Counted from the whole stretch's first letter, positions 2,690-51,639 are shown. The stretch: DNA of 63,627 nucleotides, filler included, from Reclinomonas americana ATCC 50394 (GCA_048213135.1; 12 parts of 9 records of this genome joined end to end with filler, not necessarily neighbours in it); one strand, 5' to 3'. A program made the numbers and translations. The notes: a model not told the origin generated them from the letters alone.

Positions 2690-2776
2690 TCTTCTCAAGC
2701 CGGAATCCAGCAGGGACTCTTGCACATACAGACACAGCACAGAGAACTGCCTTCTCCCCACCCTGCCTTTGCCGAG

Positions 2777-6000: not shown

Positions 6001-6173
6001 TCGCGAGCCACCAACTCGCGCAGTGCCTTCACATCGCCATCCCTCCCCATCTCCCATGCTTTCTTCCTCTGCTGCTGACTGCCAGGTTAAACAAAACCAC
6101 AAACAACGAGAGAGTGAGTGTGTTGAAACGCTATTCGGACAACACGTACAAGACACAAACAAGCACACCTCAT
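3054..6173 (-). CDS. Ankyrin - coiled coil - RLK/Pelle-like (pseudo)kinase, copy 2, complete
   Basis: Exons reconstructed by eye: ATGAG (6173-6169), ANK exon 6078-5489, 14-nt exon 5398-5385, coiled-coil exon, three N-lobe exons, 3582-3475 (VVHRGIKPANVLLD..GDFGIAR), 3410-3054 (DTLDYMDP..DVYSMGVVLVQLVT..RPTALEV, stop TGA). Confidence 0.88.
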
Positions 6174-6432
6174 TCTTCCCAGGCAGAATCCAGCAGAGAG
6201 CACTCGCACACAGAGACAAGCACAGAGAGCACTGCCTTCTCCCCGGCCAAGATGCTGTGAGAAGGGACGACGGTTTTCCCGCGTGTCCTGTTCTTGGCGG
6301 ACGATTCTGTGGCGACGTTACTTGCACTCACTCAGACCACCACATTTTTCAGTATCTTGGTAAACCTTGACCTCATTCGTGTGCCACCAGGGGCCCACGG
6401 TCAAGAGATGCCACTGGATGTACATGTGCGAC

Positions 6433-6532
6433 NNNNNNNNNNNNNNNNNNNNNNNNNNNNNNNNNNNNNNNNNNNNTTAATTAATTAANNNNNNNNNNNN
6501 NNNNNNNNNNNNNNNNNNNNNNNNNNNNNNNN
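6433..6532. other. Assembly gap linker (N-TTAATTAATTAA-N, 100 nt); the same linker recurs at about 18747, 22176, 24902, 31960, 38425, 41054, 44506, 51421, 54235 and 58759
   Basis: Identical six-frame stop linker embedded in Ns. Genes (carrier, RNase H1, PAP2, CHD) continue across it, so these are gaps inside a scaffold. Confidence 0.95.
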
Positions 6533-7053
6533 GAATGGCAAGGGACAGACGGAGAGTTAATGAGTGGACAGGAGGGTGAGAAAAGAGAGACAAGAGCAAG
6601 ACGCATTTTTTCGCAAATGCGTGGAAGAAGGGAAGAAAAAAGAGCTTGAGAGAGTGTGTGCATGAGAGAGAGCAAGAGAGAGCGAGGGACAGAGACGGAG
6701 GAAGGGGGAGAGTGACAAAGAGCACGAGGATCGTTCGCGATCGCTGGCTACTGCTCATTGTTTGTTGGTGGTCAGTGAAATAAGTGGAGAAGCAAAGAAC
6801 ACGAGAGACTGCTAGCGACAAGGACAACGAAAGAGTCACAAGGAGAGGCGCGAGAGAAGAAGGGCTGAAGCAGAGAGCAAGGAAGACTGATCATTCTCAC
6901 GCAGCGGGCCTTGTGAAAGAAGTGGAGCAGAGGACACGGGGATTTGAGAGAGACAAGAACAGCACAAATGGGTGACGAGGAAAGAGAGAAGACAGAGCTG
7001 AACAGAGAGAAAGAAAGACAGAGAAAGAGGAAGACTATTCGCATGCAGCAAAC

Positions 7054-8910: not shown

Positions 8911-9735
8911 TCTTCCCAGGCAGAATCCAGCAGAGAGCACTCGCACACAGAGACAAGCACAGAGAGCACTGCCTTCTCCCCGGCCAAGATGCTGTGAGAA
9001 GGGACGACGGAGTTTTCCCGCGTGTCCTGTTCTTGGCGGACGATTCTGTGGGCGACGTTGCTTGCACTCACTCAGCCACCACACTTTTCAGTATCTTGGT
9101 GAACCTTGATCTCATTTGTGTGCCACAAGGGGCCCACGGTCACGGGATGCCACTGGATGTACATGTGCGATNNNNNNNNNNNNNNNNNNNNNNNNNNNNN
9201 NNNNNNNNNNNNNNNNNNNNNNNNNNNNNNNNNNNNNNNNNNNNNNNNNNNNNNNNNNNNNNNNNNNNNNNNNNNNNNNNNNNNNNNNNNNNNNNNNNNN
9301 NNNNNNNNNNNNNNNNNNNNNNNNNNNNNNNNNNNNNNNNNNNNNNNNNNNNNNNNNNNNNNNNNNNNNNNNNNNNNNNNNNNNNNNNNNNNNNNNNNNN
9401 NNNNNNNNNNNNNNNNNNNNNNNNNNNNNNNNNNNNNNNNNNNNNNNNNNNNNNNNNNNNNNNNNNNNNNNNNNNNNNNNNNNNNNNNNNNNNACCGGGG
9501 CGATCGAACAAAACGAGTGGGAGGCATCATCCGCTCACTCCAGTGGTTGAGAGTTGTCGCTGGGTGCTCGGCAAGCAAGAGGAGAAGGTGGCCAAAGCCC
9601 TCTTGTCCTTCGCCAGATTTCACTCAAAGCTCCAAAGTGAACTGCCATCATGTGCCAAACCCCTTCAGTGGTAGAGAGTTGTCGGTGAGTGCTCGGCGAT
9701 CAAGACACGAGGGCTTGTTAACAGGCCCCTTACCT

Positions 9736-10337: not shown

Positions 10338-11267
10338 TCACTGGTCGCTTCCCCTTCCTTGTGCATGCTGAGCGATTGTTTCTTTGCAAACCCAGATAAA
10401 GTGAGGACGAGGCACGGGAAACGAGAGAGTGCGAGAGACGAACACACCCTGCGCACGAGCGAGATCCTCCCGAAGCTGCGCCACGAGTTGATCCCTCTCC
10501 CGCAACTGCGCGGCGAGATCGTCCTTCTCACGCAGTGCCGCCGCCAGCTGTGCGTCGAGTCGATCCCGCTCAGCCTGCAGCTGGGCGACTCGCTGCTCCT
10601 CTGTGCCCTGCCGCTCCTGCGCAACAACAATTTCGCGTTCCCGTCGCTGCTCCTCCACCTCCCGCTGCTGCTCCTCACACTCCAGCAGCGCGGCGGCAAG
10701 ATCCCGCTCCAGTTGCGCAATGACTGCATCCTTGTCGATAGCCACCTTGCGCACAAGCGAGAATGAGCGAAATGCTGAGACAAATGAGGGAGCAGAACAT
10801 CCGTCTCACCTGCTGGCGTGCTGGTGCTGCGTTGTTCCAGAGAGGCGACACACGAAGCACAGAAGTGAGCAGGAAGAGAGCGCAGAACAACAAAGGGGGC
10901 GGGGACAACGAAACGACAAGCAGCAAGTGAGAAGTGAGCAGGAAAACACAGGAGAGACCACGCCTGTTGCAAAATGGACGGCACACGGAATAGCACACAG
11001 AGAATGAGAAAGAGAAAGCACAAAAGCGCCAAAGACAGCACACTCTCTGCACAGGGGCGACACGCGTAACAACAAGCAGAGACAGAGAAGCGAGCAGCAA
11101 GAGATCACACATGCAGCAGGAGGGCGACACATGAGACAAGCGGAGAATGAGAACTATGCAGGAAGTGAGTGCAAAACGCAGAAGAGAAAGCGAGCAGGAA
11201 GAAAGCGCACACCACGCGCAGAAGAGAGCACACCTGCTACATACGGGCGACACACGAAACAACAAGC

Positions 11268-11298
<31 letters not shown>

Positions 11299-12040
11299 AA
11301 GGGAAGTGAGCAGGAAAACAAGCAAGAAATCACACCTGCTTGAGCCGGAGGAGGAGGAAGAGGTCGCGGCTCTTCCCGACGCTGCTGCCTCTCCTGCTCT
11401 CGAGGCTGCTGCTCCCGCTCCCGCTGCGGCGCCAAACCCTCCAGCACCTCCGCCACCCGCACCTTGCCATTCACACGCGCCTGCTGCGCCGCCGTCATGC
11501 CCGCCTTGTCGACCATCGCCACCAGCTCAGGAAAGCGAGTGGCAAGCAGGCGCACAATCTCCTCATGCCCATTCATGGCCGCAAAGTGCAGCGCCGTCGA
11601 CTGATCATCTCTCGCCGCCGCGCGCACCATCTCCGCCGGACACCGTCGCTCCTCGGCCAGCAACCACTCCACCACCTCCAGATTGCGATTATACGCGGCC
11701 CTCATCAGTGGTGTCCACCCATAGTCGTCGACCAGCAGTGCCAGTTGCTCGCCGACTCCGCTCTCCTCCCACAGGTACTGCAGCACCGCAAAGTGGCCGC
11801 CGTTGACGGCAAAGTGGAAGGCCGAGTCGCCCCAGTCGTTCATCTCCTCTCGGCGCAGGAGGGTGTGGGCGCCCTCGCGTGTGACCAGCTCGCGCAGTGC
11901 GGGCACGTCGTTTTCCCAGGCCAGTTCGTGGGCTTTCTTGCGGGTGCTAAAAAGAGAGGAGAGAGAGTGAGGGGAAAGGGAAAGGGAAAGAGGAGGGAGA
12001 GAAAGGGAGAGAAAGGGAGAGAGTCGCAGACAAACCTCAT
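10338..12040 (-). CDS. Ankyrin - coiled coil protein, copy 4, lacking an intact kinase domain
   Basis: ATGAG|gt (12040) spliced to STRKKAHELAWENDVPALREL.. ANK repeats, a 17-nt microexon (10826-10810) and a coiled-coil exon. Probable stop at 10338. Confidence 0.7.
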
Positions 12041-12140
12041 GGTGTTGATGTTGAAGACGGGGGGAAACAGCAGCAACTCGCACACGCTCGTCTGCTATCA
12101 CAATGCCTTCTCTTACGTGTTCTTCCGCGTGTCCTGTTTC

Positions 12141-12453
12141 ATGGCGGACGATGACGAAGGCGACGTCCTGCTTCCACCCCTACCCTTACACAACAATTCT
12201 TCTCGTCTTTTGCACACACACACACACACAATGCACAGACGTGGCTCTCAAGAGATTGTTACTAATCTTTCAAACTATCTGGCGAAACCGATAGCGCCCT
12301 TCGCCGTCTCCGGCTCGTTCCACCACACCGCGCCGATCGTGCTCAGTCACGTGCAGTCGGGTACTGTGATCGCGCTCGGCCAGTCCACCGAGGCCGAGCT
12401 GGAGACCTTCTTCCAGCTGTGTCGACCCGCCGGCTTTGGTCGTGGCACCGAGA
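12141..12453 (+). CDS. 5' part of a putative 2OG-Fe(II) oxygenase-family protein (runs into gap)
   Basis: ..PFAVSGS..ELETFFQLCRPAGFGRGTE resembles the 'C.PA.FG.G.E' motif found N-terminal to fungal/protist 2OG-Fe(II) oxygenase domains. Start uncertain (12141 or 12231). Confidence 0.45.
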
Positions 12454-16148: not shown

Positions 16149-18746
16149 TCACGTATTCTTCTTCAAACGAACACTTCTCCATCCGTTGCCGGCATACACA
16201 CCAAGCACTCTTTCCACCACCAGCTTCTCCATGTCGCACACATACACGGTGCCGTCGTCGCTGCAGGAGAACATGCGCCGACTGTCGGGCGAGAAGCACA
16301 CGGCCCTGACCGTCATGGTGTGACCACCATTCACATACAGTGCCGGCGCCCCTGAATCCACCACCGACTCTGCCGACATGGAGCCGTCGACACCGCCACT
16401 GGCCACCCACTTTCCATCGTTGGAGACAGCCACTGTCGTCGTCGTATCGGTATGCCCATCCAGTTTCACGTCCCTCGTCTTGGAGGCCACTGACCAACGT
16501 TCCACATTCATCCACCTACTTGCCGTGCCGAGGTACACGTATTGCGAGTCGGGAGTGAAAGCTGCGGCCATAACAAGGCTTCCACGGTCACCCAGTGTGC
16601 ACACGAGCTCACCCGTCTCCACCGACCACACCAATGCTCGCCAATCGTATCCTCCTGCACTCACGACGTACTTGCCGTCGTGCGAAATGTCCACCATCTC
16701 GACCGTTTTCCTGTGCTCCTTCATGCGGTGCCGCAACCGCAGCAGCTCGCCACCAGCGCCGGCACCACCACCGTCATCATCACCATCATCGGCGGCGACA
16801 TCGTAAACGCAAACCTCATAGTCTGGCGGTGCGCCGCCGGTGGCCACTAAGCGACCATCACGCGATACCGCCAGTACCACGCCGTCGCAGGAAATCGAAC
16901 CCAGCTGCTCTCCCGTGGCCATTGACCACAACGACAGCGCGCCACCATTATGCCACCGTTTCAGGACACACAGAGTGCACTGGCTGCCGGCCCCTTTTGG
17001 CAGCAACGCCACCTCGCCGCCGACACCGGGGAATCGTCGCACCTCCTCACCAGTGGCACACGACCACACCCGCACGACGTCGTCGTCGCCGCCCGTGACC
17101 ACATGCAGGCTGTCTGGCGTGACGGCCAGTGACGCGAACGCGGGGAACACCGCTCGCCGAATCTCGTCGCCCTGCGCCGTGGACCACACGCGAATCGCTC
17201 CAAAGAAGGAGCCTTCGTCGCCCTCGAGGCCACCGTCACTGCTGATAATGTACTGACCGTCGGGCGACACGCAGCACGCATCCAGAGAGCGAGTGTGCCC
17301 CACAAAGCATCGCAACTCTTCGCCCGTGACAAGACCGTAGACACGAATGGAGCGCCCGCGCGTTGCCACGAACCGCTGGCTGTCAGGCGAGAGGCCAATC
17401 AAGGACACACCATCAAACTTGCGCACCAGCTCGCCAGTGGTCATGGAGAAGACTGCGCGAGAGATTACTGCGTAGCGCAGATCTCGAGTGACAGTCACCG
17501 CCCCTGATCCGGCCGGCACATCACAGTGCACGCGACGCACTTCACGACCAGTGTCCACCTCCCACACCCGCACTGTGCTGTCGGTGGCGAGTGCAACAAT
17601 GTGCGCACTGCCAGGCACGATGCTAATGCACGTCAACTCTTGCTCTTGCACCTCTGCAAACCGCTCCGCATGCGCCACCTCACCCGTCTCCAGCGACCAC
17701 AGCGTAAAGCCGAGGATCATGCACTCGCCGTCGGCGGTCAGCGCCATGCTCTGGCCGGCCAGCTTGCTGCCGCGCACCTGGAATGCTCGTATAGGTGCGC
17801 CAGTGGCCGAGTGCCACACGTGAACATTCAGCTGCCGCGACAAGCTGACCACTCGCTCGCCGTCGGGTGTGACGGCGACACACGTGGCTCCGTCGCCCTC
17901 GGCACGATGCTTTTCGTACATCACGAGCCGCTTGCCATCTTGCAGCGCGAACACGTACGCATAGCCTTCCAGGCAGCTGGCAACAATGAGCCGGTTGTCC
18001 GGCGACACGACGACAGAGTTAAGCGAGTAGTTAAAGTAGTCGATTTCCCCTCGTGGCAAGCGAGCACCCGTCAAGTTGGCGCCGCAAACATCGGCCTGTG
18101 AGCAGTACGCCGAGAGCAGATTGACATTGCGCAGGTCGGCGTCGCAGAGCACCGTCTTGTGCATCACTGCATCGCGCAAATCGGCGCCGACTAGCGAGCA
18201 GTTGCTGAGATCGCGCGCACTGAACGGCACTCCAGCGGCGCACAAGACACTGGCGGCGCTGGCCGACACCACCGACAACACCGACTCATTCGCCGGTGTG
18301 CGCCTTCGCGACAGCTCAATCGCGTGCCACAGCGCACTCTGCAGCGTGGTGTCGAGTCGCACGTGCTCGGCGGCGAACGAGAGGACCGAGTTGAGGCCCT
18401 ACAAAGAAAGGGACAGCGTGACGATGGGTTCGAGAGAGAGAGGAGGGGGGGGAGAGGAAGGGCGATGAATGGTACCCACCTCGTCCATTGGCGTGAGGGG
18501 ACGCGTGCCCGCGAGACCGCCTCGGAGTCGGTCGACAGCGTCCTGTGCAGGAACCATGAGTGGTCTTGACCACAAAGACAATTAGAAAACCGAGAGATCA
18601 CCTCCAGCTGGTCGCTGTTGCCGGCGAGAATGTGCACCTCGTCCAGCCACGACTGCGCAGCAAAGTACTCGAGCACCGACTTGTGGACGAATTCGACACG
18701 CTGCAGGTGGTCGGCACGGCGGCTCCACTTGAACAGGGACTTTTTT
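16149..18746 (-). CDS. NLR-like protein: NACHT winged-helix end - pentapeptide repeats - WD40 repeats (5' truncated by gap)
   Basis: EFVHKSVLEYFAAQ (NACHT winged-helix motif F.HKS..EYF.A) at about 18650-18695, two short introns, then SVLSFAAEHV..LWHAIELS..AASVLCAAGVPFSARDLSNCSLVGADLRDAVMHKTVLCDADLRNVNL (pentapeptide) and about a dozen divergent WD40 repeats up to the stop at 16149. Confidence 0.8.
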
Positions 18747-37551: not shown

Positions 37552-38152
37552 TCATCGTCGCGCGCACATGCCTGCCCGAGCCAGCTGATCGGCGGCCTCA
37601 TTTCCTGCGCACACACACACACACACACAATCACCTTCAATCCCCAGCTGTGTGGGTCGCGAGCCGCGTGCATCTTGCACAACAGACCTTCAATGCCGGC
37701 ATGCCCACGCACATGCACGACGCGGAAACCATCGGGGCCGGCTCTGGCGCGGCGCTCCTGCACAAGCCGCCACAGGCGCTTGAATTCCACGCAGTTCACC
37801 TGCTTCTCCCACGCGTTATTCTTGTCCCACTTGGGCATCCAGTCGAGAATGGCTGTGTGTGCGTGTCGGGTTAGGAGACGCATCATCATCATCCTCTTGT
37901 GGCTCAGTGCGCACGGTGCACAAACCATCGCGCACATAGATTGAATCCGTGTACACGACAATCGGCTCGTCAGGGTCCGTCACCTCCAGTGCACGAATAC
38001 ACGCCTGCAACTCGGCGACTTGGTTGGTGTGCCGATCACCGCGCACAGGCTCCGCCACGTTTCTGCAGCAGTGGCAGCGGCGGTCACATGAGAGGGGGGC
38101 GACAGCAGGGAAAGGAGGTGACAGAGCAGGCACACACACACACACACACACT

Positions 38153-38183: not shown

Positions 38184-39323
38184 CGTGGATCTCCGTGCCC
38201 GAAAAAGACGCCGACTCCAGCCCGTGCTCCCGATCGGCCATTTTTCGAGCACGCGCCGTCCGTGAAGCTGTGAGAAGGGTGTGAGGAACGGCGATCGCCA
38301 AAAAATGTCGACATGATGACGACGAACACATGGGTCGGTGCTCTGCTTTTCGGTCGCGGCAGCACAGGCGGCGGTGACCGCGGCAGCGGGGCGGCCACAG
38401 GCGGTGCAGACGGGAGTCCGGCGANNNNNNNNNNNNNNNNNNNNNNNNNNNNNNNNNNNNNNNNNNNNTTAATTAATTAANNNNNNNNNNNNNNNNNNNN
38501 NNNNNNNNNNNNNNNNNNNNNNNNCTAGCAGGCTTCTCTGGTGACGAAAAGCTGGGAGACACAAACTCCTCCTCCCCTTCCTCCTCCTCCCCGTCGCTAT
38601 ACGCAGAGGCATACTGCAGCTCCGCGAACTTGACATCGAACGCCTCCGGAGTGCGAATCGATCGGCGATGGAGGTACTCTTGCGCCTCCTCCTCAGTGTC
38701 GAACTGTGGTCGAGGGAAGCAGTCAACGACTCTGTGTGTGTACATAGCCTCTCTGTCTCTCTCTCTCTCTCACACACTTACTTTGTGGTACTGCGCGCCC
38801 TGGAAGCCGACCACCTGCTCGGCACATGCCGGCCACGTGCGATAGATGCCACGTCGACGACCACGACGCACGGCATAGTAAAAGCTGGAAGGCGGCAACG
38901 TCGCAGGATCGACCCGAGGTCCCACAAACGCCTCGGCTTCGGCCTTGGTCGCGAACTGAGAGAGCAACGGTGTGTGTGAGAGTGAGTGAGAGAGTGTGAG
39001 CGAGTGAGTGATTGGACCTTCTTGTACACTGCGTTTCTGAAGCCGCTTACGGCGGCTTTGCAGTGGTCCCATGAGGTGAAGACGCCTTGTTGCCAGCCGG
39101 CACGCACGGCATAGTAGGCTTGTGACATTGCTTGCGTGTGTGAGGCAAGCGAATGAGGTCTGATTGACACAGGACGGACACCAAAGCGATGTGTTTTGGT
39201 GTGCGTGACGTGCTGTGTACCGCAGTGAGCTGGTGCCATGTGCCGACTAGAACGCAAGCAGAAGCGCAAAGACGAAGAGAGCGACGTCGAAGTCGGAATA
39301 ACAAATGCTGACGTCACCTTCAT
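37552..39323 (-). CDS. RNASEH1: Ribonuclease H1, copy B, with two hybrid-binding (Caulimovirus viroplasmin) domains; spans a gap
   Basis: YYAVRAGWQQGVFTSWDHC..|FATKAEAEAF; FYYAVRRGRRRGIYRTWPAC..|FDTEEEAQEY; FTDGACSKNG; TNQVAELQA; VYTDS; HVRGHAG|GNEAADQLAR. Start at 39128 or the upstream in-frame ATG at 39323. Confidence 0.88.
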
Positions 39324-39399
39324 AGAACGCTTTATTATACATCGCGCAGCGACGACGACAACTGCATACAACAACCGTCACGCATTCGCCAACTCCAGC

Positions 39400-40639
39400 T
39401 CAACGACGCCCGCTCATACCAGCGCGAGCCAGCCGATCAGCGGCCTCATTTCCTGCTCACAGATGCAGTGAGATCGTTTGCCAGCTAGCCGAGCAATGCC
39501 CCTCTGCTGCGAGCCAAACCTTTCACGCCAGCATGCGCAGGCACATGCTCGATGCGGAAACCATCGGGACCGGCGACGGCACGACGCTCTTGCACGAGCG
39601 CATGCAGACGCTTAAACTCCCTGCTGTTCGCCTGGTCATCCCACGTGCCGCGCCTCTCCCACTTGGGCATCCAGCTGACCACGGCTGCGCGGCCCACAAG
39701 TCAGCAAGCAGCACGCTGCTGCGACACTCGCAGCGCACAGACAACTCACCATCGCGCGTATACTTTGAATCCGTGTACACGGCAATCGGCTCCTCCGGCG
39801 CCGTCTTCTCCAGCGCACGGATGCACGCCTGCAACTCCGCCACCTGGTTCGTGTGCTTTTCGCCACGCACCGGTTCCGCCACGTTTCTGTCGCAACATGC
39901 ATGCAGCGTGAGGACGTTGCGAGAAGAGCAAGAGAGGCAAGTCAATTACAAACCGTGGATCGCCCGGTCCAAAGTACACGCCAACGCCCGCACGTGCTCC
40001 CGACTTGCCGTTCCGAGTGCACGCACCATCCGTGTACCTGATACACATGCATGAGAGTGCTTGCAAGAGCAAGACAACCTTCTAATTATTACGAAACACT
40101 CGAGTTGGCGATCGCCTGCGAGGTGGCGGAGGTGGAGGAGACGGAGCTCGTCGAGGGGGTGCAGCAAGTGGGGCCGAGCTGTACGAGGAACGACGCTTCT
40201 GCGCAGGCTCATAGTCGTCATAGTCGTCATAGTCTGCGCGAGAAACATGATGAGAAGCACGACACACACACTTACACGCGTGCTCACAGATTGATACATA
40301 CGCACCACGCTCAGGCGCACGCTTGCGACTGTGTGTGTGTGAGAGAGAGAGAGAGAGTGAGTGAGAGAGAACGGACTCAGCAACATGTGACAACGAAACG
40401 AGTAGCGAGGAGCCGACGAGCTGCCCGCAAAGTCTGCGGCGATCTCCTCTGAGTAGAACTGGACGTGCATGTGTGTGTGAGAGAGAGATGACAAGTGAGC
40501 GTGTGATCAGGGCTCTTGTCTGTCTGTTTGTTACCTTGCGGAAGACGGGGTTTTTGTAGCCGCTGACCGCGGCCTTGCACTCCTCCCACGAGTCGTAGAC
40601 ACCTCGTCGCCAGCCAGATTGCACTGCGTAATAGGCCAT
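39400..40639 (-). CDS. RNASEH1: Ribonuclease H1, copy A, with one hybrid-binding domain
   Basis: MAYYAVQSGWRRGVYDSWEECKAAVSGY; YTDGACTRNG; TNQVAELQA; VYTDS; HVPAHAG|GNEAADRLAR; D-E-D-D catalytic set intact. Confidence 0.9.
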
Positions 40640-40823
40640 TTTGGGTTTGCCTTCGCGATCTCGGAAAAATTGGCGGGATATATCCACCAGTGAGGACGCG
40701 AGGACGGTGGGCGACTCCGGGTGTTTTGTGGGCTCGCTCTGCAGCAACGAATGTGCTTGGGACGGCAGTGTCGACGTTGGTGATTTATTAAACAATCTGC
40801 GCATGCATCTCTGATCCTGACGT

Positions 40824-42105
40824 TTACAGGCAAAGGAGTGCATTCGTGGAACACCGATGCAGAACGACCTCTGCCTCCTCGACCAGGAAGCAGCGCAGCA
40901 CGATCTCCACCAGACAGCGGCGATCTCCTTCTCCTTCTTCTTCTTGCATCTCCTGCACCACATGCATGGCCGACCGCGCACAATCGAGCTCCTGCCGAGC
41001 AAGGCCACACGGCGAGGACCACACTCGAATGGTGTGATCGTCGCTGCAGCTGANNNNNNNNNNNNNNNNNNNNNNNNNNNNNNNNNNNNNNNNNNNNTTA
41101 ATTAATTAANNNNNNNNNNNNNNNNNNNNNNNNNNNNNNNNNNNNNNNNNNNNGTGTGTGGTCACTGGTGACAGGGGAGGAGGTGCGACGGTTGCAGGGG
41201 CACACTGCGCCAGTGTTGTGTGTCGCTGTCACTCCCGACGGCCAGCACGTTGTGAGTGGTGGGAGTGACAAGACAGTGCGAGTGTGGTCGCTGGCCAGTG
41301 GTCGGGAGGTACAGCAATTGCACGGCCAAAGGGGCGATATTTGGTCTATCGTGGTCACTCCCGATGGTGCGCATATTGTCAGTGGGGAGGTTGTGCGACT
41401 TTTAGAGAGGCACACGGATAGGGTGCAATGTGTTGCAGTCACTCCTGACGGACAGCATGTTGTGAGTGCGGTTACGGACTTTAGTATTCGAGTGTGGTCC
41501 CTGGCAACGGGCGACGAGGTGCAGCGACTGTGCGGACACGAAGATGAAGTACTGTCTGTCGCCGTCACTCCCGGCGGCCAGCACGTCGTGAGTGGGAGTT
41601 TTGACTGGACCGTTCGCGTGTGGCTGTTGGCTCGTGGACAAGAGGTGCGTCGGTTTGTGGGACACTGTGCCGCTGTGCGGTCAGTTGTGGTTGCACCCGA
41701 TGGGCAGACTATCGNNNNNNNNNNNNNNNNNNNNNNNNNNNNNNNNNNNNNNNNNNNNNNNNNNNNNNNNNNNNNNNNNNNNNNNNNNNNNNNNNNNNNN
41801 NNNNNNNNNNNNNNNNNNNNNNNNNNNNNNNNNNNNNNNNNNNNNNNNNNNNNNNNNNNNNNNNNNNNNNACACGGTCTTGTCGTCGCTCCCACTCACTA
41901 TGAGCTGTCCGTTGTGTGAGATGGCGACTGCACGCACTGGCGCAGTGTGTCCCTGCAGCAGTCGCACCTCCTCGCCACTCGCAAGCGACCACACTCGCAC
42001 TGTCTTGTCGTAGCTTACACTCGCCACGTGCTGCCCGTCGGGAGTGAGGGCGATAGATGTTACCCCGTTGGTGTGTCCGTGCAAGCACTTGCAGTGGAGA
42101 GACAT
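40824..42105 (-). CDS. WD40 array gene W1 (fragmented: N-terminus 42105-41871, middle piece 41154-41714 in opposite orientation, C-terminus 41052-40824)
   Basis: MSLHCKCLHGHT.. start and the family C-terminal tail ..CGLARQELDCARSAM..EIVLRCFLVEEAEVVL. Linking the pieces across gaps is inferred. Confidence 0.6.
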
Positions 42106-42112
42106 GAAGAGG

Positions 42113-42145
<33 letters not shown>

Positions 42146-42297
42146 GTGTGTGGAGAAGGACAGCTAATGTGGGACGCTGCACTAACGACGTTGCTGCGTC
42201 GCCTGTGTTCAATGTTCCACAGTCGACGACCTACAAACAAGGGGCTCTCTTTACAATGTTTCAAAACACAGCACATCAGAGCACGAATAACCTGTGG

Positions 42298-43295
42298 TCA
42301 CAGGCAAAAGAGTGCACTTGACGAACACCGATGCAGAACGACCTCTGCCTCCTCGACCACGAAGCAGCGCAGCACAATCTCTATCAAGCAGCGGCGATCT
42401 CCTTCTTCTTCTTCTTCTTCTTGCATCTCCTGCACCACGCGCACGGCCGACCGCGCACCCTCGAGCTCCAATCGCGCAAGGCCGCACGGCGAGGACCACA
42501 CGCGAATGGTGTTGTCCCAGCTCCCACTAACAANNNNNNNNNNNNNNNNNNNNNNNNNNNNNNNNNNNNNNNNNNNNNNNNNNNNNNNNNNNNNNNNNNN
42601 NNNNNNNNNNNNNNNNNNNNNNNNNNNNNNNNNNNNNNNNNNNNNNNNNNNNNNNNNNNNNNNNNNNNNNNNNNNNNNNNNNNNNNNNNNNNNNNNNNNN
42701 NNNNNNNNNNNNNNNNNNNNNNNNNNNNNNNNNNNNNNNNNNNNNNNNNNNNNNNNNNNNNNNNNNNNNNNNNNNNNNNNNNNNNNNNNNNNNNNNNNNN
42801 NNNNNNNNNNNNNNNNNNNNNNNNNNNNNNNNNNNNNNNNNNNNNNNNNNNNNNNNNNNNNNNNNNNNNNNNNNNNNNNNNNNNNNNNNNNNNNNNNNNN
42901 NNNNNNNNNNNNNNNNNNNNNNNNNNNNNNNNNNNNNNNNNNNNNNNNNNNNNNNNNNNNNNNNNNNNNNNNNNNNNNNNNNNNNNNNNNNNNNNNNNNN
43001 NNNNNNNNNNNNNNNNNNNNNNNNNNNNNNNNNNNNNNNNNNNNNNNNNNNNNNNNNNNNNNNNNNNNNNNNNNNNNNNNNNNNNNNNNNNNNNNNNNNN
43101 NNNNNNNNNNNNNNNNNNNNNNNNNNNNNNNNNNNNNNNNNNNNNNNNNNNNNNNNNNNNNNNNNNNNNNNNNNNNNNNNNNNNNNNNNNNNNNNNNNNN
43201 NNNNNNNNNNNNNNNNNNNNNNNNNNNNNNNNNNNNNNNNNNNNNNNCGTCAAGACGTTAGCGTGTCCGTGCAAACTCTTGCAGAGGAGAGACAT
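42298..43295 (-). CDS. WD40 array gene W2 (middle in gap)
   Basis: MSLLCKSLHGHANVL at 43295 and the family C-terminal tail at 42533-42298. Confidence 0.7.
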
Positions 43296-43481
43296 GAAGA
43301 GGGATGTGTGTAAGCGCGCGGTGAGATAAGAGTGTGAAGAATGGGACAAGCAGTCGGCTCATGGACGTCGCCTTGAGTTTACGTTCCACTGCAAAGCCAA
43401 GGACCGCCACGCACAAACACGAGAAGAGTCTTCTACTTTATTTTGTTAACAAACACCGCACATCAGAGCAATAACCTGTGG

Positions 43482-44653
43482 TCACAGGCAAAGGAGTGCA
43501 CTTGACGAACACCGATGCAGAACGACCTCCGCCTCCTCGACCACGAAGCAGCGCAGCACGATCTCCGCCAAGCAGCGTGGATCCTCCCCCACTTCATCTT
43601 GCATCTCCTGCACCACGCGCATAGCTGACCGCGCACCCTCGAGCTCCAATCGAGCAAGGCCACACGGCGAGGACCACACGCGAATGGTGTTGTCCCAGCT
43701 CCCACTAACGATGTGCTGACCGTCGCTTGAGACGGCAACAGATCGCGCAGTGGAAGTGTGCCCTTCCAGCACGTGCACCTCTTCACCACTCGTCAGGGAC
43801 CACACGCATACAGTGGTGTCCCTGCTTCCACTCACCACGTGCTGGCAGTCGGGAGTGACGGCGACGGACATCACCCGATTAGTGTGTCCCTCCAGCCGTC
43901 GCATTTCATCACCCGTTTCCAGCGACCACACTCGAATAGTGTTGTCCCAACTCCCAGTCACAACATGCTCTCCGTCAGGAGTGATGGCGACTGCCCACAC
44001 CCAGTGAGCGTGCCCTTCAAACTGCCGCACCTCCTCCCCAGTCGCCAGCGACCACAATCGCACTGTACGGTCCTGGCTGCCGCTCACCACGTGCAGTCCA
44101 TCGGGAGTGACGGCAACCGAGTACACGGAACCAGTGTGTCCCTCCAACAGACGCACATCGTCGCCACTCTCCAGTGACCACACACAGATTGTACCGTCGA
44201 GACTCCCACTCGCAACGTGCTGACCAGCGGGAGTGAGAGCGACGAACGGCACGCTCACAGTGTGACCCGCCAGACGCCGGTGTCGCACCTCTTCCCCAGT
44301 CGCCAGCGACCAAATGCGCACGATAGTCATCCTCGCTCCCACTTACGATGTGGCGCCCATCGTGAGTAACGGCGACAGATGACACCTCTTCATTGTGTCC
44401 TTCCAATCGTCGCACCTCCTCGCCCGTCGTCAGTAACCACACACGCACGGTTTTATCCGTACTCCCGCTGACGATGTATTGCCCGTCTGGAGTGAGGGCG
44501 ACAGANNNNNNNNNNNNNNNNNNNNNNNNNNNNNNNNNNNNNNNNNNNNTTAATTAATTAANNNNNNNNNNNNNNNNNNNNNNNNNNNNNNNNNNNNNNN
44601 NNNNNCCTCAAGACGTTAGCGTGGCCGTGCAAACACTTGCAGAGGAGAGGCAT
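43482..44653 (-). pseudogene. WD40 array gene W3 with a frameshift near 44325 (pseudogene or sequencing error)
   Basis: MPLLCKCLHGHANVL start; repeats switch frame at SGSEDD/IVRIWSL; family tail intact. Confidence 0.65.
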
Positions 44654-44834
44654 GAAGAGGGATGTGTGTAAGCGCGCGGTGAAAGAAAGTGTGAAGAATG
44701 TGTGGGACAAGCAAGTCGGCTCATGGACGTCGCCTTGAGTTTACGTTCCACTGCAAAGCCAAGGACCGCCACGCACAAACACGAGGAGAGTCTTCTTCTT
44801 TACTTTGTTCACAACACAGCACACCAGAACACAA

Positions 44835-45899
44835 TCACAGACGAAGGAGCGGATCTGCGGAACATTGATGGAGAACGACCTCCGCCTCCTCGACTAGGAA
44901 GCACCGCAGCGCAATCTCCGCCAAGCAGCGGCGATCTCCTTCTCCTTCTCCCTGCATCTCCTGCACCACATGCATGGCCGACCGCGCACAATCGAGCTCC
45001 TGCTGAGCGAGGCCACACGGCGAGGACCACACACGAATGGTGCGATCGTCGCTGCAACTGACGACATGCTGACCGTCGGGCGAGACGACAACAGTGCGCA
45101 CAAGATTCGTGTGCCCCTCCAGCCGCCGCACCTCCTCTCCAGTCGCCAGTGACCACACGCGCACAGTTGCGTCAAACCCCCCACTCACGAGGTGCTGGCC
45201 GTCGAGAGTGACAGCGACAGACATTACTCGATCAGCGTGTCCCTGCAGCCGTCGCACCTCCTCACCACTCGCCAGGGACCACACTCGAATAGTGGTGTCA
45301 AGACTTGCGCTAATAATGTGCTCTCCATCGGAAGTAACAGTAACACATTGCACCCTATCCGTGTGCCCCTCCAACCGTCGCACTTCTTCGCCGGTCGTAA
45401 GCGACCACACCCGCACTGTGGTATCGTGGCTTCCACTGACAACATGGGTGCTATCGGGAGTGACGGCGACAGACCAAACATCGCCTGTGTGGCCTCGCAG
45501 GAGTCGCACCTCCTCCCCAGTCGCCAGTGACCACACGCGCACTGCCATGTCACTGCCACCACTCACAACGTGCTGGCCGTCGGGGGTGACGGCGACAGAG
45601 TACACGCCTTTCGAGTGTCCCTTCATCCGGTGCACCTCCTCCCCTGTCGCCAGTGACCACACTCGCACAGTCTTATCTTGACTCGCACTCACGATGTGTT
45701 GGCAGTCGACAGTGGCGGCGACAGACCACACTGGCCCAGAGTGTCCCTCCAGCAGTCGCACCTCCTCGCCACTCGCCAGTGACCACACACACACCGTCCT
45801 GTCTAGGCCGCCGCTCACAATGTGCTGTCCATCGGGAGTGAGGGCGATGTATAGCACGGCACCGGTGTGCCCATGCAAACACTTGCGGAGGAGAGACAT
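44835..45899 (-). CDS. WD40 array gene W4: intronless, 7 x 42-aa WD40 repeats plus conserved tail
   Basis: 354-aa ORF with seven GH..V..VA.TPDG.H.VSG..D.TVRVWSLA.GEEVR repeats. Confidence 0.92.
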   Translation of the reverse strand: MSLLRKCLHGHTGAVLYIALTPDGQHIVSGGLDRTVCVWSLASGEEVRLLEGHSGPVWSVAATVDCQHIVSASQDKTVRVWSLATGEEVHRMKGHSKGVYSVAVTPDGQHVVSGGSDMAVRVWSLATGEEVRLLRGHTGDVWSVAVTPDSTHVVSGSHDTTVRVWSLTTGEEVRRLEGHTDRVQCVTVTSDGEHIISASLDTTIRVWSLASGEEVRRLQGHADRVMSVAVTLDGQHLVSGGFDATVRVWSLATGEEVRRLEGHTNLVRTVVVSPDGQHVVSCSDDRTIRVWSSPCGLAQQELDCARSAMHVVQEMQGEGEGDRRCLAEIALRCFLVEEAEVVLHQCSADPLLRL

Positions 45900-46088
45900 G
45901 AAGAGAATGTGAGCGCGGTGAGAGTGCGACTGATGAAGGAGAGTACATGTGGGACATTAGCCGGCTCCATCAACGACGTCGTCGCTTGCGTTCAATGTTC
46001 CACGAGAGCAGCGACGTACAAACACGAGGAGAGTCTTCGTCTTCACTTTGTTTCAAAAAAAAAAGCGCAACAGAACACAGCGACAGGA

Positions 46089-47147
46089 TCACAACGCATC
46101 CGAAAAACACCGACGGAGAACAATCTCCGCCTCCTCCACCAGGAAGCAGCGCAGCACGATCTCCGGCAGACAGCGTGGATCCTCTTCTCCGATATCATGC
46201 AGCATCTCCTGCACCGCCAACATGGCCGACCGCGCACCCTCGAGCTCCTGTCGAGCAAGGCCACGCGGTGTTGACCACACTCGAATGGTGCGGTCCCAGC
46301 TCCCGCTCACGATGTGCTGGCCGTCACTTGAGACGGTAACAGACCGCACAGTGGACGTGTGCCCCTCCAGTCGCCGCACCTCCTCCCCACTCGCCAGTGA
46401 CCACATGCGCATAGTGAAGTCCCTGCCCGCAGTCAGAACGTGCCGGCCATCGGGAGTGACGGCGACAGACATCACTCGATTGGCGTCTCCCCTCAGTCGT
46501 CGCCCCACGCTGCCGGTTGCCAGCGACCACACTCGAATAGTGTTGTCCCAGCTCCCAGTCACAACACGCTCTCCGTCAGGAGTGACGGCGACTGCCCACA
46601 CGCAGTCAGAGTGTCCTTTCAATTGCCGCACCTCCTTCCCAGTCGCCAGCGACCACACTCGCACTATGGGATGCTTGCTGCTGCTCACAACGTGCTGTCC
46701 ATCGGGAGTGACGGTAACAGACCACACTGGTGCGCCGTGCCCCTCCAATCTTTGCATTTCCTCACCACTCGCCAGTGACCACACGCGAACGGTCATATCT
46801 TCACCCCCACTCACAATGCACTCATCACTGGGAGTGATGGCGACACACCACACGACACCAGCGTGTCCCTGCAATTGTCGCACCTCCTCCCCCGTCGCCA
46901 GCAACCAGATGCGCACTGCCTCGTCGTAGCCTCCGCTCGCAATGTGCTGTCCGTCGTGAGTAACGGCGACTGCACACACTTGCGCAGTGTGCCCCTCCAT
47001 GCGTCGCACTTCCTTGCCACTCGCCAGTGACCACACTCGCACTGTCGTGTCGTGGCCTCCACTGACAATGTATTGCCCGTCTGGAGTGACAGCGACAGAC
47101 GACAACACGTTGGTGTGGCCACGCAAGCACTTGCAGTAGAGAGACAT
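46089..47147 (-). CDS. WD40 array gene W5
   Basis: MSLYCKCLRGHT start at 47147, seven repeats, tail containing DPRCLPEIVLRCFLVEEAE. Confidence 0.92.
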   Translation of the reverse strand: MSLYCKCLRGHTNVLSSVAVTPDGQYIVSGGHDTTVRVWSLASGKEVRRMEGHTAQVCAVAVTHDGQHIASGGYDEAVRIWLLATGEEVRQLQGHAGVVWCVAITPSDECIVSGGEDMTVRVWSLASGEEMQRLEGHGAPVWSVTVTPDGQHVVSSSKHPIVRVWSLATGKEVRQLKGHSDCVWAVAVTPDGERVVTGSWDNTIRVWSLATGSVGRRLRGDANRVMSVAVTPDGRHVLTAGRDFTMRMWSLASGEEVRRLEGHTSTVRSVTVSSDGQHIVSGSWDRTIRVWSTPRGLARQELEGARSAMLAVQEMLHDIGEEDPRCLPEIVLRCFLVEEAEIVLRRCFSDAL

Positions 47148-47351
47148 GAATGGGTGTGCGGAGAGGATCAAAGGACACAGTGTGCACGTGGGACTCCGTC
47201 GCAATCCACTCTCTCGTGTGCTGCTGTCACCAGCTTCCTTGCCATACAACGTCCACCTCTGCAGGGCTCATCCGCGTCGCAACTAACACAGGACCACCTG
47301 TTCGCATTCTTCAACGACTCTTCTCCTCACTTGCGCGCGCGCATCTCAATC

Positions 47352-48407
47352 ATGTCTCTCCTCTGCAAGTGTCTGCATGGGCACACCGACTCGGTGATGT
47401 CTATCGCCCTCACTCCCGATGGACAGCATATTGTGAGCGGCGGTCTGGATACATCAGTGCGCGTGTGGTCACTGGCGAGTGGCAAGGAAGTGCGACGCAT
47501 GGAGGGCCACACTCTGCCAGTGTATGCAGTTGCCGCCACTGTCAACAGCCAGCATGTTGTGAGTGCGAGTCAAGACAGGACTGTGCGTGTGTGGTTGCTG
47601 GCCACAGGGGAACAGGTGCGCCGGCTGCAGGGACACTCGAAAGGCGTGGTCTCTGTCGCCGTCACTCCCGACGGTCAGCACGTTGTGAGTGGGGGTGAAG
47701 ACATGACAATACGCGTGTGGTCACTGGCGAGTGGTCGGGAGGTGCAGCAATTGCAGCAAGGCCACACGAGCTTTTCTATCGTGGTCACCCCCGATGGAGA
47801 GCATATTGTCAGCGAGAAGCGCGATTCAACAGTGTTGATGTGGTCGCTGGCGAGTGGAAAGGTGGTGAGACGGTTGGTTGGGCACTGGAGTATCGTGATT
47901 TGTGTGGCTGTCTCTCCTGACGGACAGCATGTTGTGGGTGGGGGTATGGACAACACTATTCGAGTGTGGTCGCTGGAAACAGACGACGAGGTGCGACGAT
48001 TGGAGGGACATGCTGATGAGGTAATGTCTGTCGCCGTCACTCCCGACTGCCGGCACCTAGTGAGTGGGAGTTTTGACGAGACTGTGCGCGTGTGGTCACT
48101 GGCGAGTGGAGAACAAGTGCACGTGCTTGAAGGGCACACTGCCGCTGTGCGGTCTGTTGCCGTCTCAGGCGACGGCCAGCACATCGTCAGTGGGAGCTTT
48201 GACAACACCATTCGAGTGTGGTCCACGCCGTGTGGCCTCGCTCGCCAGGAACTCCAATGCGCGCGGTCGGCCATGTTGGCTGTGCAGGAGATGCAACAAG
48301 AAGGAGACGGAGAAGATCCGCGCTGTCTGTCGGAGACCGTGCTGCGGTGCTTCCTGGTGGAGGAGGCGGAGGTTGTTCTCCGTCGATGTTTTTCGAGTGC
48401 ACTGTGA
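47352..48407 (+). CDS. WD40 array gene W6, head-to-head with W5
   Basis: MSLLCKCLHGHT start at 47352, seven repeats, same tail. Confidence 0.92.
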   Translation: MSLLCKCLHGHTDSVMSIALTPDGQHIVSGGLDTSVRVWSLASGKEVRRMEGHTLPVYAVAATVNSQHVVSASQDRTVRVWLLATGEQVRRLQGHSKGVVSVAVTPDGQHVVSGGEDMTIRVWSLASGREVQQLQQGHTSFSIVVTPDGEHIVSEKRDSTVLMWSLASGKVVRRLVGHWSIVICVAVSPDGQHVVGGGMDNTIRVWSLETDDEVRRLEGHADEVMSVAVTPDCRHLVSGSFDETVRVWSLASGEQVHVLEGHTAAVRSVAVSGDGQHIVSGSFDNTIRVWSTPCGLARQELQCARSAMLAVQEMQQEGDGEDPRCLSETVLRCFLVEEAEVVLRRCFSSAL

Positions 48408-48576
48408 TCCCGTCGGTGTGTTCCAGTGTGCGGTGTTTGAAACAAAGTAAAGAAGAGGATTCTCCTCAAACAGTCGATTGCGGTGTCGTGGCCCGCACTT
48501 GGCGCCACTCAACAGTCACGCACCACTGCCAGACTTCACGTGCGCGTCCCACGCATTTGCACGTCGTTCGGAGATC

Positions 48577-50697
48577 ATGGAGCCACCCTCGCCCTCTCGC
48601 CGCATCGAAGCCACCGACACTCCATGCATCGTGCAAATGCAAGCCATGATGCGCGCGGCCTCGCGTCCCGTGCTCTCTCTCGCGCAGGGCATTGTGCACT
48701 GGGAGCCTCCAGAGTCGGTCATGCGTGCAGTCGCTCGTGCCGGTCGCGATGTGCACGCCTACGGACCCGACGATGGCATGCCAGAGTTGCGCGATGCACT
48801 CTGTCAGGCGATTCACCTCCGACATCAACACCAGCAGCAGCAACAAGAGGGGGAGGAGTCATCGGAGAAATCACAGGTGCAAGTCATGATTACAGCTGGT
48901 GCCAATCAGGCGTTTTTCAATGTGGTGACTGCGTTGTGTGACACTGCTGGCGACGGTGTGTCCTCGGCAGCGGCTGTGCTCTTTGCGCCATACTATTTCA
49001 ATCATTTGATGGCGTTGCAAATGTCGTCGGTGCGAGTGCTGGTGGCCGAGTATGCGGGTGATGGCGAGTCGCGACAGCCGGATGTGGAGCAGTTGGAGCG
49101 CATGATGACGGGTAGTGAGGGAGCGCGTGTGCAAGTGGTGGTCTTGTGCAACCCAGGCAATCCCACGGGCATCACTGTGAAGAGAGTTGCGGGTGGCATC
49201 TTGCGTGTTGTTGTTGGTGTTGNNNNNNNNNNNNNNNNNNNNGTCGCCGGCCTCCAGTGCTCCCAGTGCCGCCACTTGTGAGATCTGTGTCGGGCAGATG
49301 GGAATGGTGTCTTGGACCTTGAGCAAGGCGGCGGCCAGGGAGGGTGGGTGGGCAATGTAGCCGATGCGCCAGCTGGTGCGCAGAGGAGTGAGGTGGAGGG
49401 AAGAGGAGCGAAGGTCTCTTGTTCGACTCACCCCATCATGCCGAACGCCTGGACACAAGGCAGCATACAAGGCGTCAGTCGCAAACATGCAAACCCTTCC
49501 CCTCAACCCCCTCCCTTCCCACTTCTCCCCTTCTCCCTTCCCCCTTTCCCCTCACCTTGGAAAACGAAAAGATATTCACCACATGCTCCCCGAGCACCAG
49601 GTGATGCCTCTCCTCCCCCGGATACACAAAGTGGTGATACGTGTTGTCCACAACCAACCACGCCCTGTGCTGCCTGCACAACTCGGAGATGCGTTCCAGC
49701 ACACTCTGCGCACTCTTGTCATCAANNNNNNNNNNNNNNNNNNNNNNNNNNNNNNNNNNNNNNNNNNNNNNNNNNNNNNNNNNNNNNNNNNNNNNNNNNN
49801 NNNNNNNNNNNNNNNNNNNNNNNNNNNNNNNNNNNNNNNNNNNNNNNNNNNNNNNNNNNNNNNNNNNNNNNNNNNNNNNNNNNNNNNNNNNNNNNNNNNN
49901 NNNNNNNNNNNNNNNNNNNNNNNNNNNNNNNNNNNNNNNNNNNNNNNNNNNNNNNNNNNNNNNNNNNNNNNNNNNNNNNNNNNNNNNNNNNNNNNNNNNN
50001 NNNNNNNNNNNNNNNNNNNNNNNNNNNNNNNNNNNNNNNNNNNNNNNNNNNNNNNNNNNNNNNNNNNNNNNNNNNNNNNNNNNNNNNNNNNNNNNNNNNN
50101 NNNNNNNNNNNNNNNNNNNNNNNNNNNNNNNNNNNNNNNNNNNNNNNNNNNNNNNNNNNNNNNNNNNNNNNNNNNNNNNNNNNNNNNNNNNNNNNNNNNN
50201 NNNNNNNNNNNNNNNNNNNNNNNNNNNNNNNNNNNNNNNNNNNNNNNNNNNNNNNNNNNNNNNNNNNNNNNNNNNNNNNNNNNNNNNNNNNNNNNNNNNN
50301 NNNNNNNNNNNNNNNNNNNNNNNNNNNNNNNNNNNNNAAGTGGGTGCGAGAGCGCGTGCTGAGCTTGGAGGCAAATCGCGCCGCCTTGCGCGAGGTTCTC
50401 TGCTCGCTACTCGGCGCCGATCGTGTATTCGGCGGCGAGGGCGCCATCTACATGATGGCGCACCTGCCGGAGGTGTTTGCCGAGTGCGACACGGCCGTGG
50501 TGCGCTGGTTGTGCTTCCGACACGCCGTCACCGTCATCCCCGGATCGGCATGCGGCGCCCCCGGCTTGATCCGCGTGTGCTTTGCCAACTTGGCGGGCGA
50601 TCGCTTCGCAGAGGCACTGGAGCGATTGCGCCAAGGTTTGACGGAGCTGACGTCGGGATCGATCTCGGCGAGGGATGTGAAGGAAGTGGAGCCGTGA
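48577..50697 (+). CDS. Class I/II PLP aminotransferase, ISS1/VAS1-like aromatic aminotransferase; middle contig 49243-49724 is reverse-oriented
   Basis: LSLAQGIVHWEPP; YGPDDGMPELR; VMITAGANQAF; FAPYYFNH; CNPGNPTG on +. LVVDNTY, NIFSFSK|AFGMMG|WRIGY and KVQDTIPICP on -. GEGAIY..VIPGSACGAPG..RVCF on +. Confidence 0.88.
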
Positions 50698-51241
50698 TAA
50701 ATACAACAGTGACAAGTGGTGTGTTGCTGAGCATTGGAAAGACGCAAAGTGCTGCTGGGAGGAAGGGAAGCTCTCGTCCCAATCAACGGTCCTCAATCAT
50801 TGCTCTAGATCGATGGAGGAGTCATCAGACTCCCACGGTACGTCTTTCCTCTCTCACAGCAGGCACACCGCACCTTCCACTCACCTCCCTCCACGAGACA
50901 GAGTTCGCCGACTTTGACGACACAAGCCCCACAGAACCTCAAAACGGTTTTCCATCTGCAGTCTTCCCGCGCACTCGCGCACTCTCACTCTCTTACTCTC
51001 TTGACTCAATGCACAGACATGTACGTTGAAGTGTGGAGCTCATTACTGGCCACCACGAGGCAAATGGACGATGATGAGTGGCAGTTCAACGCCACCTCCA
51101 ATCTGGGATTGCAGATCACGTGGTGACGAGAGAGACAGAGTGAATGATGGTGAAGGCGAGGGAGAAGGGGGGTGGTGAGGGGGGAGGGGGAAGGGGGAAG
51201 GGGGGAAGGGGAAGGGGGGAAGGGGAAGGGGGGAAGGGATT

Positions 51242-51305
<64 letters not shown>

Positions 51306-51639
51306 AGAAGAAGAAGAAGAAGAGAGAGAGAAGAGAGAGAGACGACGTACGACGACGACGAGACGAGAGACGAGGAGGTAGTGTGTCGTGTCGTACGGAC
51401 CGGACGGACGGACGGTAGTANNNNNNNNNNNNNNNNNNNNNNNNNNNNNNNNNNNNNNNNNNNNTTAATTAATTAANNNNNNNNNNNNNNNNNNNNNNNN
51501 NNNNNNNNNNNNNNNNNNNNGAGAGAGAGAGAGAGAGGAAGAAGAAGAAGAAGAAGAAGAAAAGCTTGGAAGAAGAAGGATAGCATGCCGACTGAGCACT
51601 AGACATGAAGACAGGCGAGTGTGTCAGCTGCTGCGCTGG

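Follow-up and report, generated by a model that had tools for sequence, protein, structure and literature searches.

At positions 40827–48404 of a 63,627-nt stretch of DNA (filler included; the whole stretch is referred to below as the window) from Reclinomonas americana ATCC 50394 (GCA_048213135.1), six paralogous, intronless genes were identified, each encoding a WD40 propeller followed by a C-terminal tail. Five of the genes are located on the minus strand and one (GF) on the plus strand. The array is a real gene family, which is without annotation in the databases searched. As the best explanation, to which we assign about even weight, we propose on the basis of the sequences and structure models that these proteins are moderately repetitive WD40 adaptors of a lineage-specific family, in which the predicted ligand faces have diverged and a putative docking tail is shared.

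The genes were detected by tblastn of the intact open reading frame (ORF) of GD (44838–45899, minus strand) against the window, combined with reading-frame checks. Only GD, GE and GF are intact as assembled. GD encodes 354 residues, with seven blades of 42 residues (residues 8–301) and a tail of 53 residues; the variable strings that had been listed for its blades under the name W4 in the initial sequence-only reading (TGAVL to TNLVR) match this protein. GE (46092–47147, minus) encodes 352 residues, and GF (47352–48404, plus), which lies head-to-head with GE, encodes 351 residues and lacks 3 residues of the d-a loop in blade 4. GA (40827–42105, minus; tblastn and joined ORF) is encoded in three pieces: residues 1–78 at 42105–41872 and residues 281–341 at 41051–40827, both on the minus strand, and residues ~80–279 on an inverted segment at 41154–41714 (plus). 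Flipping this 561-bp segment restores an intact ORF of 1023 nt (341 residues), with exact codon junctions at the linker and at the 156-N gap, in which ~14 residues of blade 4 are missing. GB (42301–43295, minus; frame translations) is readable in its first 16 codons (43295–43248) and in its last blade and tail (42533–42301), the middle being a 714-N gap (42534–43247). In GC (43485–44653, minus; tblastn and frame checks), residues 1–15 are found at 44653–44609 and residues 18–75 at 44502–44329; the interval consists of 6 nt and a 100-nt linker, and no residue is lost. A single frameshift near 44325 makes GC a possible pseudogene, or represents a sequencing error.

Every readable copy forms one uninterrupted ORF, and all five readable copies can be aligned across seven blade positions, with no gain or loss of a whole blade. 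The six-gene array described earlier is recovered as six paralogs by tblastn and frame translation, albeit with three genes intact as assembled and one on the opposite strand; likewise, the seven 42-residue repeats ascribed to each gene are found in the five readable copies (with a partial blade 4 in GA), GB being largely hidden in its gap. The stop codons of the six units are 1184–1474 nt apart, corresponding to ~1.2–1.25 kb after subtraction of linker and gap Ns, in agreement with the proposed unit length of about 1.25 kb, and Tandem Repeats Finder (TRF) reports a 126-nt period in the array. The four spacers between units on the minus strand (42106–42300, 43296–43484, 44654–44837 and 45900–46091; 181–195 nt) are alignable, and the first ~70 nt downstream of each stop codon are conserved in the alignment, also after the stop codon of GF (48405–48470). 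This indicates that the unit of duplication comprises the gene and its flanks, and the family has grown through tandem duplication of entire 1.25-kb units, each made up of gene and spacer. The start codons of GE and GF are separated by a divergent spacer of 204 nt (47148–47351), a presumed bidirectional promoter.

A (TG)20 microsatellite (42114–42152) is located directly upstream of the GA start codon, and a shorter CACACA stretch is found at this place in the other units. Long antisense ORFs (195–293 residues) with repetitive, Ser/Pro/Thr-rich translations are present at 45094–45681 (plus), 46048–46929 (plus) and 47675–48508 (minus); they are most likely by-products of the codon make-up of the repeat, and were not retained as genes.

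The propeller nature of the proteins is clear. In the four array ORFs tested, the Pfam WD40 family (PF00400) was found in 5–7 stretches with E-values of 6e-57 to 9e-78, and the Pfam scan of these ORFs returned WD40-type families only, with no NACHT, HET or other signalling domain. The AlphaFold2 model of GD has a predicted local distance difference test score (pLDDT) of 91.7 and contains 28 strands in seven blades, of which the last (blade 7) is closed by the N-terminal strand. The proteins start at this closing strand and end 53–57 residues past the last blade, and the spacers between the genes measure 181–204 nt; these features, together with the WD40-only Pfam result, bear out the earlier description of stand-alone propellers without a NACHT domain. 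The closest solved match to the GD model is the WD40 domain of Thermomonospora PkwA (5yzv; root mean square deviation (rmsd) 0.9 Å, 39% identity), and further matches include the designer protein WRAP-T (7big), a Nostoc protein (2ymu) and WDR5 (30% identity, rmsd ~1.6 Å).

Blade-to-blade identity within one protein is 0.51–0.59 for the five readable copies, and the paralogs are 62–71% identical to each other. In Hu et al. 2017 (PMC5587647), WD40 proteins with an internal repeat identity of 0.4–0.7 are termed moderately repetitive; the array proteins fall inside this band, with the proviso that the identity method of that study was not reproduced exactly. The same paper describes the repetitive class as common in prokaryotes, fungi and protists, and its predicted hotspot positions as remaining diverse on conserved repetitive frames. 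A literature search for tandem WD40 arrays in protists found no such protist array described, and a search on jakobid nuclear genomes and WD40 found nothing on this family.

Several known WD40 families were considered. The Pfam models for WDR5, G-beta, Prp19, THOC3 and EIF3I all scored below their cut-offs in the four ORFs tested, providing no evidence of orthology. The cut-offs for WDR3 (first and second), WDHD1 and WDR36 were exceeded only as 2–6 overlapping partial stretches; as these are multi-propeller proteins far longer than 354 residues, membership was rejected and the excess scores are read as an effect of the consensus-like repeats. Gcp1–3, Pex7-related WD40 paralogs that Horvathova et al. 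2021 (PMC8134430) link to the mitochondrial type II secretion system of jakobids and heteroloboseans, were set apart by their description, since they are Pex7-like with one orthologue each per species, compared to a tandem family with uniform blades. An uninterrupted ORF of 749 residues elsewhere in the window (16152–18398, minus) carries pentapeptide repeats (residues 73–111) and a long WD40 region; it was not accepted as a seventh family member, being only ~30% identical to the array genes.

The variation between the paralogs is concentrated at a few positions of the 42-residue unit, which is numbered here such that GH occupies positions 3–4, the conserved Val position 8, the Asp position 26 and the Trp position 32. 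When the same blade is compared between paralogs, the mean pairwise amino acid difference is 66, 76, 80, 70, 84 and 84% at positions 5, 6, 7, 9, 25 and 27, respectively; it is 63% at position 2 and 0–49% at the other 35 positions. With the model strands at 8–13 (a), 19–24 (b), 28–33 (c) and 39–2 (d), the variable positions fall in the d-a loop, at the start of strand a and in the b-c turn. In the modelled fold, the six positions together make up the usual WD40 ligand face, this assignment to the top face resting on strand topology and on Paoletti et al. 2007 (PMC1805685). In that paper, codons 7, 9, 25 and 27 of HET-E are described as positively selected, with codons 8 and 26 under purifying selection, and as belonging to the top interaction face. 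The likeness to HET-E in variable positions therefore stands: the set includes codons 7, 9, 25 and 27 around the conserved positions 8 and 26. The loops of the bottom face (14–18 and 34–38) differ by only 6–43% between paralogs. The top-face signatures of all 35 readable blades are distinct, and Trp, Phe and Tyr account for 12% of the 207 residues at the variable sites, amino acids of which the framework has few besides its invariant Trp. Some of the top face is constrained: position 9 of blade 7 is Arg in all five paralogs and in a jakobid expressed sequence tag (EST), and position 9 of blade 6 is Met in four of the five.

The tail is conserved in all six copies. It comprises the last 61–65 residues, which are encoded at 44838–45026 (GD), 40827–41018, 42301–42495, 43485–43673 and 46092–46274 on the minus strand and at 48222–48404 on the plus strand and show 82% mean column identity in an alignment of the translations, with a core motif LRCF[LV]VEEAE that becomes LRCF[LI][VK]E[ED] when distant relatives are included. 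A profile search with the tail against 1.84 billion representative proteins gave three matches only. One is a 116-residue R. americana EST product (EukProt), which is 70% identical to GE over 111 residues covering the last blades and the tail. The other two, of 394 and 381 residues, are 30% and 23% identical to GE end-to-end, and are stand-alone propellers with irregular blades in which the tail motif has been kept. With only three relatives carrying the tail, the combination of propeller and tail defines a small, lineage-restricted family, represented in the window by a tandem branch with regular blades. A collection of 15 billion proteins contains none of the three complete proteins of the window. 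A tail-directed word search among proteins of 194–620 residues yielded 11 candidates, none of which scored, a metagenome contig scan with the tail profile gave 219 pattern matches of which none was confirmed, and a search of the ESM Atlas with the tail returned no usable match.

Against Pfam, the six tails (E-values up to 10) gave four weak families with a best E-value of 0.14, none of them F-box or SOCS-box, and no sequence match with an E-value below 0.6 was found among solved chains of the PDB. An F-box, a SOCS box, a zinc site, a prenylation signal and a type 1 peroxisomal targeting signal (PTS1) were considered as identities of the tail and set aside for lack of support from Pfam or PDB; the three relatives from outside the window conserve neither its cysteines nor its C-terminal residues.

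Comparison of the individual blades shows first that the genes were duplicated as complete propellers. Nucleotide identity is 73.3% between blades at the same position of different genes (n=70), compared to 63.2% between blades within a gene (n=105) and 63.4% between blades differing in both gene and position (n=420), and for 33 of the 35 blades the nearest neighbour is the blade at the same position in another gene. When labels are mapped on a maximum likelihood (ML) tree of all 35 blades, 8 changes are required for position (minimum 6; 24.4 on average after shuffling, and never so few in 200 shuffles), compared to 27 for gene. These data show that the seven blades were fixed before gene duplication, and, with blades of like position grouping across the genes, there is no concerted evolution within genes of the kind that the sequence-only reading cited for HET-E. 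Secondly, the paralogs are old and long diverged, with a synonymous divergence (dS) of 0.45–0.83 in the framework.

Framework and tail are shown to be under purifying selection, and the six positions per blade vary freely. In ML codon models of five sequences, the ratio of nonsynonymous to synonymous divergence (omega, dN/dS) is 0.28–0.31 for the framework, 0.23–0.28 for the tail and 0.98–1.08 for the 42 variable codons (six sites in seven blades), sites that are near saturation. In a SLAC-like count on the blade tree, none of the 42 positions of the unit has a ratio significantly above 1 and 20 are significantly below 1, the six variable positions having values of 0.64–1.21. The proportion of nonsynonymous differences exceeds that of synonymous differences (pN > pS) only at positions 7 and 25.

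Finally, patches have been exchanged between homologous blades of the paralogs by gene conversion. The pairwise homoplasy index (PHI; 184 informative sites, three window sizes) is 0.357–0.388, compared to a permuted mean of 0.4285, with none of 1000 permutations as low. In addition, the best-supported pairings shift along the gene: GD with GF in blades 1–3, GA with GF in blade 4, GC with GE in blades 1 and 4–6, GA with GD in blade 7, and GE with GF in the tail. The patchwise sharing noticed earlier is thereby corroborated. The longest exact matches between paralogs are 22–51 nt, which argues against frequent exchange at present.

We propose that the top face of each paralog would bind a ligand of its own, and that the shared tail would connect all paralogs either with one another or with a single common partner, following a logic of interchangeable adaptors or substrate receptors. 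The copies have diverged over a long time while swapping patches between homologous blades. Should this be correct, the array would be a compact natural case of one scaffold and one docking tail serving many ligand faces, found in a eukaryote lineage that branches deeply and has received little study. The tail would then represent a small protein module of a new type, and the search for its partner would be worthwhile.

Several observations weigh against this proposal. The array lies in a fragmented draft assembly, and two or three of its six copies are defective (the frameshift in GC, the 14-residue deletion in GA and the unread GB). The tail is modelled with moderate confidence: in the GD model it forms helices at residues 294–317 and 324–346 with pLDDT values of 58–77, and when folded alone it forms a two-helix hairpin with a pLDDT of 75. 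A fold search with the tail gave no Foldseek match at an E-value of 0.001 or lower, and VIA-align Z-scores of at most 8.1, a range that the tool itself calls common, returning generic hairpins only. The variable sites were picked after the data had been seen. Dividing dN at the variable sites by dS of the framework gives 1.53 (bootstrap 1.14–2.08), and dN is the larger of the two in all ten pairs, but this ratio depends on the correction for saturation (pN 0.42–0.61) and is unmatched by the ML estimates based on the sites' own synonymous changes; owing to this dependence and to the post hoc choice of sites, it is taken as a hint only. An omega of about 1 is also exactly the value expected for unconstrained, functionless surface positions.

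The main rival, a neutral face, starts from this last point. The paralogs could be redundant, forming a dosage array, or could act through their conserved parts (such as tail, framework, and the top faces in blades 6 and 7), with the variable positions merely drifting; we judge this distinctly less probable than the adaptor family, yet well ahead of the other alternatives. It is consistent with the ML omega of the variable sites and with the 0.64–1.21 of the blade-tree count, in which none of the 42 positions is significantly above 1, with the restriction of pN > pS to positions 7 and 25, and with the confinement of conserved top-face residues to blades 6 and 7. What drift alone accounts for less well is the location of the variation, which affects the canonical contact positions of WD40 proteins and not all surface loops, the bottom loops being far less different. 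The enrichment of Trp, Phe and Tyr at the variable sites and the excess of variable-site dN over framework dS in every pair point in the same direction, away from drift.

The sequence-only reading had interpreted the array as HET-E-like, fast-diversifying recognition proteins, or as a donor pool of repeats for receptors; on this view, repeat shuffling and positive selection would have shaped a repertoire for non-self, prey or pathogens. The 42-residue unit, the choice of variable codons, the exchange of patches, the uniqueness of all 35 top-face signatures and the intronless, tandem nature of the genes fit this interpretation, which nevertheless seems improbable to us. The genes lack NACHT, HET and other signalling domains; the blades are not homogenised within genes, whole blades have been neither gained nor lost in the five readable copies (GA being ~14 residues short in blade 4), the divergence is old, no site has a dN/dS significantly above 1, and exact matches of 22–51 nt are a poor substrate for frequent exchange today. 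Rapid diversification is thus not demonstrated; equally, the recognition idea is not refuted, as the variable sites are assigned to the top face and their omega is not below 1. As regards a donor pool, the window contains no receptor gene with such repeats. A repertoire of a jakobid-like protist independent of NOD-like receptors (NLRs), in which stand-alone propellers with individually diversified top faces are held together, or coupled to signalling, by a helical tail and obtain new specificities through gene conversion between tandem paralogs, is in our estimate comparably doubtful. If true, the HET-E codons 7, 9, 25 and 27 would have been employed independently a second time, outside fungi, to build a repertoire.

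A further possibility, compatible with the other explanations, concerns the origin of the genes. The array is flanked on the left by RNase H1-type ORFs (38.7–40.6 kb) and on the right, ~170 nt after GF, by a class I/II aminotransferase gene in which a 483-nt segment (49243–49725) contains a 16-nt micro-exon between two short interruptions of the GT..AG type. The claim that the array is intronless among intron-bearing genes therefore holds at least locally. In this 483-nt segment the exons around the pyridoxal phosphate (PLP)-binding lysine (SFSK / AFGMMG / WRIGY) are on the minus strand, the rest of the aminotransferase being on the plus strand. An intronless bacterial repetitive WD40 domain may have been captured, acquired a tail and been duplicated, a scenario we consider quite unlikely as a whole; the propeller itself may possibly have come from bacteria. 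Apart from the contrast in introns with the neighbouring gene, it is favoured by the most similar database proteins, which are 53–59% identical over the propeller only and of which several have a bacterial-looking architecture (such as FHA, membrane segment and WD40), and by the actinobacterial source of the closest solved structure. However, the G+C content of the WD40 genes (0.59–0.61; 0.64–0.67 at third codon positions) is within the range of their neighbours (0.55–0.62 and 0.62–0.80), and 47 prokaryotic genome loci are only 25–48% identical, with the tail covered in none. Moreover, the tail persists in both of the divergent stand-alone relatives, a sign that propeller and tail have probably been joined for long, and consensus-like repeats inflate the similarity of unrelated repetitive WD40 proteins.

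The state of the assembly also bears on the array. The window is a draft eukaryote-type assembly with ~57% G+C and numerous runs of N, including 11 identical artificial joints of 100 nt each (44 N, TTAATTAATTAA, 44 N), starting at positions 6433, 18747, 22176, 24902, 31960, 38425, 41054, 44506, 51421, 54235 and 58759. These joints behave like contig boundaries rather than real gaps; several of them lie in or beside microsatellites. The breaks within the array consist of two such linkers (41054–41153 and 44506–44605) and two ordinary gaps (41715–41870, 156 N; 42534–43247, 714 N). The linker at 44506–44605 is a pure insertion in the continuous reading frame of GC, and at the joint at 41054 the junction is exact after flipping of the neighbouring piece (41154–41714). 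As the same misorientation is seen in the neighbouring aminotransferase (49243–49725), the inversion of this 561-bp piece is attributed to a scaffolding error and not to biology. That the array and its mosaic pattern result from mis-assembly of fewer real genes is very improbable in spite of the many gaps and linkers, at least two misoriented small contigs between gaps (41154–41714 and 49243–49725) and contig breaks inside three of the six copies, since GD, GE and GF lie on a single uninterrupted stretch (44606–49222) and their proteins differ by 31–37%, the broken copies rejoin exactly in frame, and exact matches of no more than 51 nt between paralogs make collapse or chimeras unlikely. The case shows that intact genes can be hidden by the gap and linker artefacts of draft assemblies.

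Some other features of the window were noted. A second tandem family is present at 1–9170 and 11157–12179, with units of ~3.2–3.5 kb that are 80–96% identical and encode one ankyrin-repeat ORF each (1874–2605, 5367–6086, 8101–8823 and 11157–12179, minus), and a protein-kinase fragment is found at 3397–3858. To the left of the array, three RNase H1 N-terminal hybrid-binding domains and part of an RNase H domain are encoded, not all in one frame, at 38773–40600 (minus) and 37683–38065; segments 37683–38065 and 39515–39889 are 73% identical, and may reflect two RNase H1-type genes or a duplicated exon. A mitochondrial carrier encoded by a conserved neighbouring gene has best database matches of 69% identity, which pointed to no particular lineage. 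An Rfam scan of 38500–51400 gave no match.

The array is best filed as a variant of the known repetitive WD40 kind. With moderately and highly repetitive WD40 proteins such as 5yzv and 2ymu it shares high internal repeat identity, a conserved frame with diverse hotspots, and a fold that superimposes on 5yzv at an rmsd of 0.9 Å. In the PkwA and Nostoc examples, however, the propeller is one domain of a larger multidomain protein, and many database matches of the array proteins are labelled as kinase, caspase, peptidase or GTPase, whereas each array protein is a single propeller standing alone, with a predicted helical tail of its own, encoded in a six-gene tandem. Housekeeping single propellers such as WDR5 resemble them in having seven blades and a similar size (30% identity, rmsd ~1.6 Å), but have no such tail and do not occur as tandem multi-copy genes.

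In F-box/WD40 and WD40/SOCS-box substrate receptors, a variable propeller is joined to a small constant docking module. The array proteins, with a variable propeller face and a short conserved, predicted helical module in all paralogs, resemble these receptors by analogy only; neither box was detected in the Pfam scans of the six tails (E-values up to 10), and the fold of the tail matches generic hairpins only.

The comparison with the HNWD/NWD proteins of Podospora anserina (HET-E, HET-D; PMC1805685) is instructive. Both have a 42-residue WD40 unit whose variability is concentrated in two top-face elements, the d-a loop and the b-c turn, at codons 7, 9, 25 and 27 next to the conserved 8 and 26; in both, sequences are exchanged among members and nearly every repeat has its own top-face combination. 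Unlike the HNWD proteins, those of the array have no HET or NACHT domain, for which the spacers of 181–204 nt leave no room, and possess a C-terminal tail of their own. Their blades are 51–59% identical, compared to up to 100% in HNWD, they group by position and not by gene or species, and whole blades are not gained or lost, whereas repeat number is variable in HNWD; the omega of variable sites is about 1, as against values reported for HNWD as strongly above 1. The comparison with HET-E is right on which positions vary, and wrong on how and how fast they evolve. As the same four codons vary here without near-identical repeats, changes in repeat number or a NACHT domain, variable hotspots on a WD40 frame are not by themselves a signature of immune-type diversification, and the array marks the limit of the HET-E analogy.

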